64,000 nucleotides of DNA from the NCBI RefSeq assembly GCF_003334335.1, contig NZ_QOWQ01000004.1; one strand, given 5' to 3'. A program made the translations under genes and the position numbers. Origin of the DNA: Escherichia coli. GTDB taxonomy: Bacteria; Pseudomonadota; Gammaproteobacteria; Enterobacterales; Enterobacteriaceae. This document shows positions 24,395-24,548 of the stretch, in pieces. The notes beneath the pieces were generated by a model. That model worked only from the letters and a program-made list of their open reading frames with translations, did no database searches and had not been told where the DNA came from. Positions within the stretch are counted from its first letter, which is position 1. Each line of letters starts with the position of its first letter.

Positions 24395-24548
24395 CCCGGT
24401 GGTGGTTAGGGTATTACTTCACATACCCTATGGATTTCTGGGTGCAGCAAGGTAGCAAGCGCCAGAATCCCCAGGAGCTTACATAAGTAAGTGACTGGGG
24501 TGAGGGCGTGAAGCTAACGCCGCTGCGGCCTGAAAGACGACGGGTATG
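24395..24548. repeat. ERIC/IRU enterobacterial repetitive intergenic consensus element
   Basis: Contains aatccccaggagcttacat and aagtaagtgactggggtgag, matching the classic ERIC core (ERIC1R/ERIC2 primer sites as I recall them); boundaries approximate. Confidence 0.75.

Follow-up and report, generated by a model that had tools for sequence, protein, structure and literature searches.

The stretch of Escherichia coli DNA analysed here (hereafter the window; 64,000 nt) includes the pdhR-aceEF-lpd region, and the present analysis concerns the 324-nt spacer that separates aceF from lpd (Table 1). A segment of 526 nt across this spacer is 100% identical to the corresponding sequence of E. coli K-12 MG1655 and of many other strains, and window positions are obtained by subtracting 103333 from the positions in NC_000913.3. 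Just 3' of aceF, a GC-rich hairpin with a T-run behind it (inverted repeat I2; arms of 13 nt, 92% complementary, then TTTTTT) resembles an intrinsic terminator and is kept in all related species compared. Further downstream, the spacer harbors the lpd promoter and a dispersed repeat of the ERIC/IRU family. The annotation of NC_000913.3 contains no feature at the position of this repeat, and no gathering-level Rfam match was detected within the spacer (24255-24578). A permissive Rfam search of the spacer returned nothing but terminator-like matches over the aceF hairpin and a weak match to the Shigella chromosomal small RNA CssrA (24494-24594; 26.1 bits against a gathering score of 93), which is the best sub-threshold match over the ERIC. 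Because this match covers the right half of the ERIC, the CssrA model itself probably contains ERIC-like or ERIC-derived sequence.

Table 1. Features of the aceF-lpd spacer and the flanking genes, in window coordinates
Feature	Position	Strand	Basis
aceF CDS (upstream gene)	22362..24254	+	ORF list; RefSeq annotation of the identical K-12 sequence
GC-rich hairpin with T-run, intrinsic-terminator-like, just 3' of aceF	24257..24286	+	inverted repeat I2
lpd promoter block TTGTTAACAATTTTGTAAAAT, -10 TAAAAT at 24372-24377	24357..24377	+	promoter scan; 78 loci
lpd-specific transcription start site (+1)	24384..24384	+	published NC_000913 127717
5' arm of the conserved basal leader stem (CCGGUGG)	about 24395..24403	+	folds of both alleles; 41 ERIC-free leaders
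Strain-variable block, 147 nt; 30 nt ATAATGGGCGTCATAAAAAAAACGTCAGAC in ERIC-minus E. coli	24403..24549	+	alignment A1
Full-length ERIC/IRU element, sense to lpd, +40 to +164 of the leader	24423..24547	+	HMM, covariance model
ERIC core = ERIC1R/ERIC2 PCR primer region and apical hairpin	24465..24504	+	exact match; inverted repeat I3
3' arm of the conserved basal leader stem (CCGCCGG)	about 24549..24556	+	folds; ERIC-free leaders
Shine-Dalgarno sequence (AGAGG) and lpd start codon (ATG 24579)	24569..24581	+	AGAGGTCATGATG invariant in all aligned leaders
lpd (lpdA) CDS	24579..26003	+	ORF list; RefSeq annotation

The repeat between aceF and lpd is a full-length ERIC/IRU miniature inverted-repeat element with the same sequence as in E. 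coli K-12. Work on ERIC/IRU elements dates back to 1990-91 and their K-12 copies are catalogued, so the presence of the element as such is an ordinary finding. A first-pass annotation of the window, made from the sequence alone, had recognized an ERIC/IRU element in this spacer by its classic core, and both the assignment and the core stand: the 40-nt core GAATCCCCAGGAGCTTACATAAGTAAGTGACTGGGGTGAG is matched exactly on the + strand, is the single match in the window at up to 3 mismatches, and was matched in none of 100 shuffled sequences. The interval proposed for the element, 24395-24548, was close, but its first 28 nt consist of an arm of the basal leader stem (24395-24402) and 20 nt of non-ERIC flank.

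The similarity extends beyond the core, the point on which the first-pass annotation had made its assignment depend. Because the window copy contributed to the iterative profile and to the covariance model, a separate HMM was built from 8 ERIC copies at unrelated loci only (rpsB-tsf, pgk-fbaA, ybiT, mobH, Hafnia, and viral contigs). With this independent profile, 24424-24546 aligned end to end with model positions 2-124 of 125 (90.7 bits, E 2.8e-27), the one match obtained. The iterative nhmmer profile and the covariance model (18 copies) both yielded a full-length element at 24423-24547 on the + strand. The covariance model (R1), with the window copy in its training set, scored 131.8 bits on the + strand and 22.2 bits on the - strand, so the orientation of the element is well defined.

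Other E. coli copies, located between rpsB and tsf, between pgk and fbaA, adjoining ybiT, and in a mobH-ardC element, share 77-80% identity with the lpd copy over 102-122 nt. The number of matching places per E. coli genome has a median of 9 and a maximum of 15, and the mean column identity in the alignment of ERIC copies (A2) is 80%. The lpd copy has an outer inverted repeat at 24422-24448 and 24522-24548, and the inverted repeat I3 within the core occupies 24469-24482 and 24487-24500. The consensus hairpin of the family (18 copies) has 92.7% of its cells paired, with compensatory double changes at 17 of 29 pairs; none of 500 shuffles reached the observed values, and slid controls were 31-43% paired. 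The lpd copy thus combines the core, the full length, the imperfect palindrome, the dispersed multi-copy occurrence, and the extragenic position in a transcribed region that are typical of the family, and, as appropriate for a mobile MITE, it is present or absent at orthologous sites. The notion of a chance palindrome, or of a core fragment that is no true family member, is close to untenable, being contradicted by the end-to-end alignment with a profile of independent copies, by the multiple paralogous copies in each genome, and by the covarying hairpin common to the family.

As described for the ERIC/IRU/RU-1 family (Sharples & Lloyd 1990; Hulton et al. 1991; Wilson & Sharp 2006, as cited in PMC3184786 and PMC2229807), the lpd copy is an intergenic, transcribed element of about 125-127 nt with the same core, in which an imperfect palindrome yields a long hairpin, and which occurs in multiple copies per genome and varies in presence between strains. 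It differs from a typical ERIC in that the flanking dinucleotides, examined for a target-site duplication, are CA...TG instead of TA...TA, and in that the 3' half of the ancestral hairpin tip has been lost, the mark of a replacement rather than a clean insertion. No cognate transposase is named in the ERIC reviews consulted.

Lpd is the E3 subunit common to the pyruvate dehydrogenase, 2-oxoglutarate dehydrogenase, and glycine-cleavage complexes, and lpd has a promoter of its own, by which the Lpd level is set separately from aceEF. A promoter scan identified a sole promoter-like site in the spacer, at 24349-24377. The promoter block TTGTTAACAATTTTGTAAAAT is found with at most 5 mismatches in 78 of 78 Enterobacterales loci, whether these carry an ERIC or not, and resembles an ArcA box. 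Genome-wide mapping of transcription start sites (Kim et al. 2012) placed the lpd start at NC_000913 127717, with a 5' UTR of 195 nt (PMC3415461 supplement), and the same start is supported by PMC2759082. According to the same supplement, the lpdA start of Klebsiella pneumoniae follows the same TTGTTAACAATTTTGTAAAAT sequence and is associated with a 76-nt 5' UTR; the proximal lpd start sites of the two species are reported to match in PMC3415461, which never mentions ERIC. We find no ERIC in the lpd leader of K. pneumoniae.

With both the -10 element and the start site upstream, the ERIC occupies most of the lpd 5' UTR (Table 1), with its end 31 nt away from the AUG and 22 nt away from the Shine-Dalgarno GAGG, and it would also be included in any pdhR-aceEF-lpd read-through transcript. 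The first-pass annotation erred in placing the element within the region of the lpd-specific promoter, and the comparison with start sites that it had proposed puts the published start upstream of the ERIC, not within it. The ERIC, starting at 24423, overlaps none of the promoter elements considered (-35/-10, start site, upstream operator sites), and the scan of 24403-24549 detected no promoter-like site in the ERIC block. That the ERIC forms part of, or overlaps, the lpd promoter region and modulates initiation at the DNA level is therefore highly improbable: the element does lie in the spacer that holds the lpd promoter, but the -35, the -10, and the mapped start are all at least 39 nt upstream of it, K. 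pneumoniae uses the same promoter sequence and start without an ERIC, and the promoter block is conserved in species with and without an ERIC alike. The start-site data contradict a role at the promoter, and, given the position of the ERIC downstream of the promoter and the start, any effect on lpd would be post-transcriptional and would not involve promoter use.

Comparison of 78 aceF-lpd spacers of Enterobacterales revealed the context in which the ERIC is embedded. In most of these, the leader contains a stem-loop with the succession CCCGGTGG, aTGAaGGGCGTt, loop, ACGTCnGAC, and CCGCCGG; 3' of it lie an A/U-rich linker and then AAGAGGTCATGATG, which does not vary. Across 41 ERIC-free leaders (alignment A3, loci L005-L083), the basal stem of 7 bp, CCGGUGG/CCGCCGG, hardly changes, with a double change in only 1 of the 7 pairs; the conservation is accordingly strong, but covariation cannot prove the helix. 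No Rfam family covers this stem-loop, and we found no described function for it. In E. coli, alignment of the window and K-12 with O157:H7 JEONG-1266 and strain 04-00955 (A1) shows two forms of the leader, one of which has 147 nt in place of the 30-nt tip of the other, with the basal stem, the A/U-rich linker, the Shine-Dalgarno sequence, and the AUG unchanged. The 147-nt block of K-12 comprises 20 nt of a diverged left arm and loop, the 125-nt ERIC, and 2 nt. Since the 3' half of the ancestral tip is gone from the K-12 allele, the ERIC-minus allele cannot be derived from it by deletion, and the lpd ERIC represents a replacement. The tip of the ERIC-minus allele is orthologous to those of Klebsiella, Kluyvera, and Atlantibacter, which identifies ERIC-minus as the ancestral state. 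Within the non-ERIC flank on the left, GGGTAT directly repeats the 3' terminus of the ERIC (24409-24417 and 24542-24550); this GGGTAT is conserved in the alleles of Enterobacter sp. 10-1 and Entomohabitans. An alternative 8-bp helix, TAGGGTAT/ATACCCTA, could join the left flank (24407-24414) to the ERIC 5' terminus (24423-24430).

The variation in presence between strains anticipated by the first-pass annotation is pronounced within E. coli. The lpd ERIC was detected in 3433 of 5426 complete genomes (63%) and is missing from the other ~37%; in 3398 of the 3433 carriers, its identity is 99% or higher. A search with the 30-nt allele yielded only two allele classes among 5425 E. coli genomes. The spacer measures 324 nt in K-12, HS, and IAI1, and the ERIC allele is also present in SE11, ATCC 8739, BL21, HB101, and an O111:H8 strain. 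The ERIC-minus spacer measures 207 nt in CFT073, 042, and IAI39; O157:H7 EDL933 and ATCC 25922 have full-length matches to the ERIC-minus allele, and ST131 and ST648 strains do not carry the lpd copy. We take the sampled ERIC-plus strains to belong to phylogroups A or B1, and the ERIC-minus ones to B2, D, E, or F. Among the sampled strains, this split is consistent with a single event on the A/B1 side of E. coli, and the lpd ERIC appears to behave within E. coli as a stable two-allele polymorphism.

Outside E. coli, ERICs occupy the same loop of the lpd leader in a scattered set of lineages. They were identified in 13 of 78 species-level genomes, invariably in the sense orientation relative to lpd (13 of 13): E. 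albertii, Enterobacter sp. 10-1, Entomohabitans, a Raoultella MAG, Pectobacterium betavasculorum, four Serratia species, Yersinia pekkanenii, two Erwinia persicina lineages, and Pantoea sp. IMH. Most other genera have no lpd ERIC, yet share the same promoter, stem, and ribosome-binding site. The junctions differ between groups and point to no fewer than four independent events. The inner stem flanks the ERIC intact on either side in Raoultella and Pectobacterium; in Serratia, a clean TA duplication is evident at the orthologous site (L036 with the ERIC compared with the empty site L038); and the 3' arm is lost at the E. coli-type and Yersinia junctions. Junctions of the K-12 type are limited, among the 78 species, to E. 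coli, E. albertii, Enterobacter sp. 10-1, and Entomohabitans.

Remnants and unrelated insertions were also observed at this site. Two Pectobacterium genomes (L032, L042) contain decayed, 29-nt mini-ERICs reduced to the termini, ACACCC...GGGTGT. A 12-nt remnant of the ERIC right end, GACGACGGGTAT, is present in Citrobacter sp., Cedecea davisae, Leclercia sp., and an Enterobacter MAG (L017, L029, L030, L035), where the leader is shortened to 46 nt and the CCGCCGG arm is lost. Three Pantoea genomes and Izhakiella carry, in the same loop, an unrelated palindromic insert of about 120-140 nt with terminal inverted repeats GAGCCTATTCCATTAGGC ... GCCTAATGGGATAGGCTC (L078 about 1323-1462, L079 about 1341-1462, L084 about 1340-1462, and L082 about 1335-1465), and a collapsed, 45-nt form of this insert was found in Pantoea sp. 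A4 (L059). Other unrelated inserts are located in the loops of Hafnia (L034), Shimwellia (L039), and Edwardsiella (L081). Hairpin-forming inserts are evidently tolerated in, or drawn to, the lpd leader loop. Insertion into hairpin loops as a general rule for ERICs is not supported: among the flanks of 7 other copies, only those of the rpsB-tsf copy are clearly complementary. In Serratia oryzae, long-form ERICs of 198 nt, each with an internal insertion of about 70 nt, lie on both sides of lpd (L045 1259-1456 and 2933-3130), and S. microhaemolytica has an ERIC also downstream of lpd (L076 2947-3104).

The first-pass annotation had further stated that ERIC copies can be transcribed into structured RNA, and the predicted folds of the lpd copy are strongly structured. 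The RNA of the ERIC alone is predicted to fold with -63.7 kcal/mol on the + strand (z -6.4) and with -49.4 kcal/mol on the - strand; for the whole ERIC-plus leader, the predicted energy is -84.1 kcal/mol (z -5.6). In the predicted structure, the terminal helix of the ERIC (24422-24428 with 24542-24548) is stacked directly on the basal stem of the leader, whose arms (24396-24403 with 24549-24556) pair in both the MFE and the centroid folds; the predicted fold of the ERIC-minus leader has the same basal stem with the same partner. When 60 nt more of coding sequence are added, the MFE fold differs at the base of the leader, but the basal-stem arm retains a predicted pairing probability of 0.89 with the ERIC and 1.00 without it.

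Predicted pairing around the translation start is similar in the two alleles. The mean pairing probability of the Shine-Dalgarno sequence is 0.30 in the ERIC-plus and 0.25 in the ERIC-minus leader, that is, mostly unpaired in both; the values are 0.41 and 0.37 for -20 to +15 around the AUG, and 0.41 and 0.39 for the first 12 nt. Occlusion of the ribosome-binding site by the insert, a candidate effect of the ERIC, is ruled out at the level of these predictions by the equal pairing probabilities in the two alleles.

The identity and anatomy of the element are secure. As for its role, we consider it probable that the lpd ERIC is a tolerated, self-folding RNA passenger, with at most a modest effect on the processing or stability of lpd mRNA. 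Under the proposed mechanism, the ERIC RNA would pair with itself to give a long, imperfect hairpin, stacked onto the native stem at the base of the leader, so that it would lengthen a pre-existing structure and would make no new contact with the promoter or the ribosome-binding site. We propose that self-complementarity is kept by selection because a mis-folding insert near the ribosome-binding site would be harmful. The untouched promoter, 5' end, and ribosome-binding site, and the fact that a third of E. coli and most genera do without the element, fit the status of a tolerated passenger, as do the decayed ERICs and the unrelated inserts in the same loop. The modelled leaders point to a modest effect on lpd, or none.

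Two observations could indicate a selected function instead. One is the recurrence of ERICs in the same loop, through at least four different junctions and always in the sense orientation; the other is that the E. coli-type copy appears more conserved than a neutral passenger should be. Between E. coli and E. albertii, the lpd ERIC shows 0 differences in 125 positions, compared with 14.5% at the four-fold sites of lpd; the respective values are 6.4% and 32.5% for Enterobacter sp. 10-1, and 15.4% and 34.7% for Entomohabitans. The E. albertii differences closest to the ERIC are at aceF -22 and lpd +59. The slow divergence of the K-12-type ERIC may reflect purifying selection acting on it, or else a recent exchange of a short tract. 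The whole E. albertii NBRC 107761 spacer (L006 1179-1500) differs from 24255-24578 of the window by one substitution and 2 nt in length, in contrast to the differences from K-12 in aceF (3.2%) and lpd (4.5%); this near-identity would be accounted for either by strong constraint on the entire spacer or by short-tract exchange between the species.

A selected role of the ERIC hairpin, as a cis-acting RNA module in the lpd leader, is, in our assessment, possible though doubtful. Such a module could act as a stabilizing 5' structure, or it could be processed by RNase E or RNase III and thereby uncouple lpd from aceEF in transcripts that read through, in which case it could tune the supply of Lpd for the 2-oxoglutarate dehydrogenase and glycine-cleavage complexes. 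The divergence of the ERIC, 2-5 times slower than that of the adjacent four-fold sites, and its near-uniformity among carrier E. coli genomes would agree with selection, and so would the orientation of the copies, given that not only all the lpd-leader ERICs but also the rpsB-tsf and pgk-fbaA copies are sense to transcription. In an orientation-neutral alignment of the palindrome, G.U oppositions exceed A.C oppositions 69:33 (p about 5e-4, the copies being non-independent), which favors constraint on the sense RNA over symmetry of the DNA and is compatible with an RNA-level module. The opposite conclusion is suggested by the ~37% of E. coli and the majority of genera in which the ERIC is absent and the leader is otherwise unchanged, and by the several lineages with decayed or internally deleted copies at the same site; furthermore, the palindromic inserts of Pantoea and Izhakiella suggest that the loop tolerates any hairpin, and recombination of a short tract, instead of constraint, could account for the high identity with E. 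albertii.

A precedent for an RNA-level effect comes from Yersinia, where, according to articles citing De Gregorio et al. 2005 (PMC3184786, PMC2229807, PMC10969869), ERICs alter the stability of co-transcribed mRNAs. The effect is reported to depend on orientation, to involve RNase E (PMC3184786 and PMC2229807), and to concern ERICs at the 3' ends of genes, at which a site for this enzyme becomes exposed. Like the Yersinia elements, the lpd ERIC is located between two co-transcribed genes of an operon and forms an RNA hairpin defined by its orientation; unlike them, it is separated from the upstream gene by a terminator-like hairpin and an internal promoter, and this arrangement makes it a 5' UTR feature of the main lpd transcript. 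The rpsB-tsf and pgk-fbaA copies resemble the lpd copy in being members of the same family inserted in the sense orientation between highly expressed, co-transcribed genes; they were recovered from genomes without the lpd copy, which is itself dimorphic. Small palindromic repeats transcribed within operons or UTRs also include the Correia elements (NEMIS) of Neisseria, whose RNA hairpins can be processed by RNase III, and the REP/BIME elements of E. coli, whose hairpins can stabilize upstream mRNA. Both groups are unrelated to the lpd ERIC in sequence, and Correia elements can carry promoters, in contrast to the lpd ERIC, where the promoter scan detected no such site.

A broader scenario would treat the leader tip as a recurrent landing site for palindromic mobile elements, with the E. 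coli-type ERIC domesticated under purifying selection, tuning the fate of lpd mRNA, and persisting as a cross-species polymorphism spread by short-tract recombination. The polymorphism in question spans the A/B1 group of E. coli, E. albertii, an Enterobacter species, and Entomohabitans. We regard this scenario as unlikely.

Among the open-access papers searched, none links ERIC and lpd. Likewise, the accessible literature yielded no report of the placement of an ERIC in the 5' UTR, inside the conserved leader stem-loop, of the two-allele split at the lpd leader of E. coli, or of the recurrent occupation of the same loop by ERICs across Enterobacterales; these three points are of modest, specialist interest. 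If the hairpin changed the stability or processing of lpd mRNA, the widely used laboratory strains K-12, B, and HS would differ, by way of a mobile repeat, from numerous pathogenic lineages such as O157:H7, ST131, and CFT073 at a control point of central metabolism, and the locus would offer a clean natural test case for the domestication of a MITE. The practical value of the analysis lies in a corrected map, with the ERIC in the 5' UTR and not in the promoter, in a simple two-allele marker that separates A/B1 from B2/D/E/F in the sampled strains, and in a pointer to a conserved, uncharacterized stem-loop of the lpd leader.

A coding role of the ERIC was considered and rejected: an ORF lies within the element on the sense strand (24430-24486; 18 codons, MDFWVQQGSKRQNPQELT followed by a stop), but neither its ATG nor its stop is conserved among other ERIC copies. 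At the right end of the element (GGGTATGA), an ATG arises at 24546 in frame with lpd and opens an ORF at 24546-26003 with 11 extra codons; this upstream ATG is probably not used, as it is located within the terminal helix and no Shine-Dalgarno sequence is evident 5' of it. In CFT073, aceF (L097 8043-9936) is flagged by RefSeq as a frameshifted pseudogene, and tssD, bacteriocin-immunity genes, and an IS3 transposase lie immediately 5' of pdhR (L097 1-4258). Elsewhere in the window, gathering-level Rfam matches comprise PssrA (1891-1980, +), STnc40 (7627-7696, +), two copies of naRNA4 (8100-8176 and 8216-8293, both +), and tp2 (19568-19681, -), which is antisense in the pdhR-aceE spacer.
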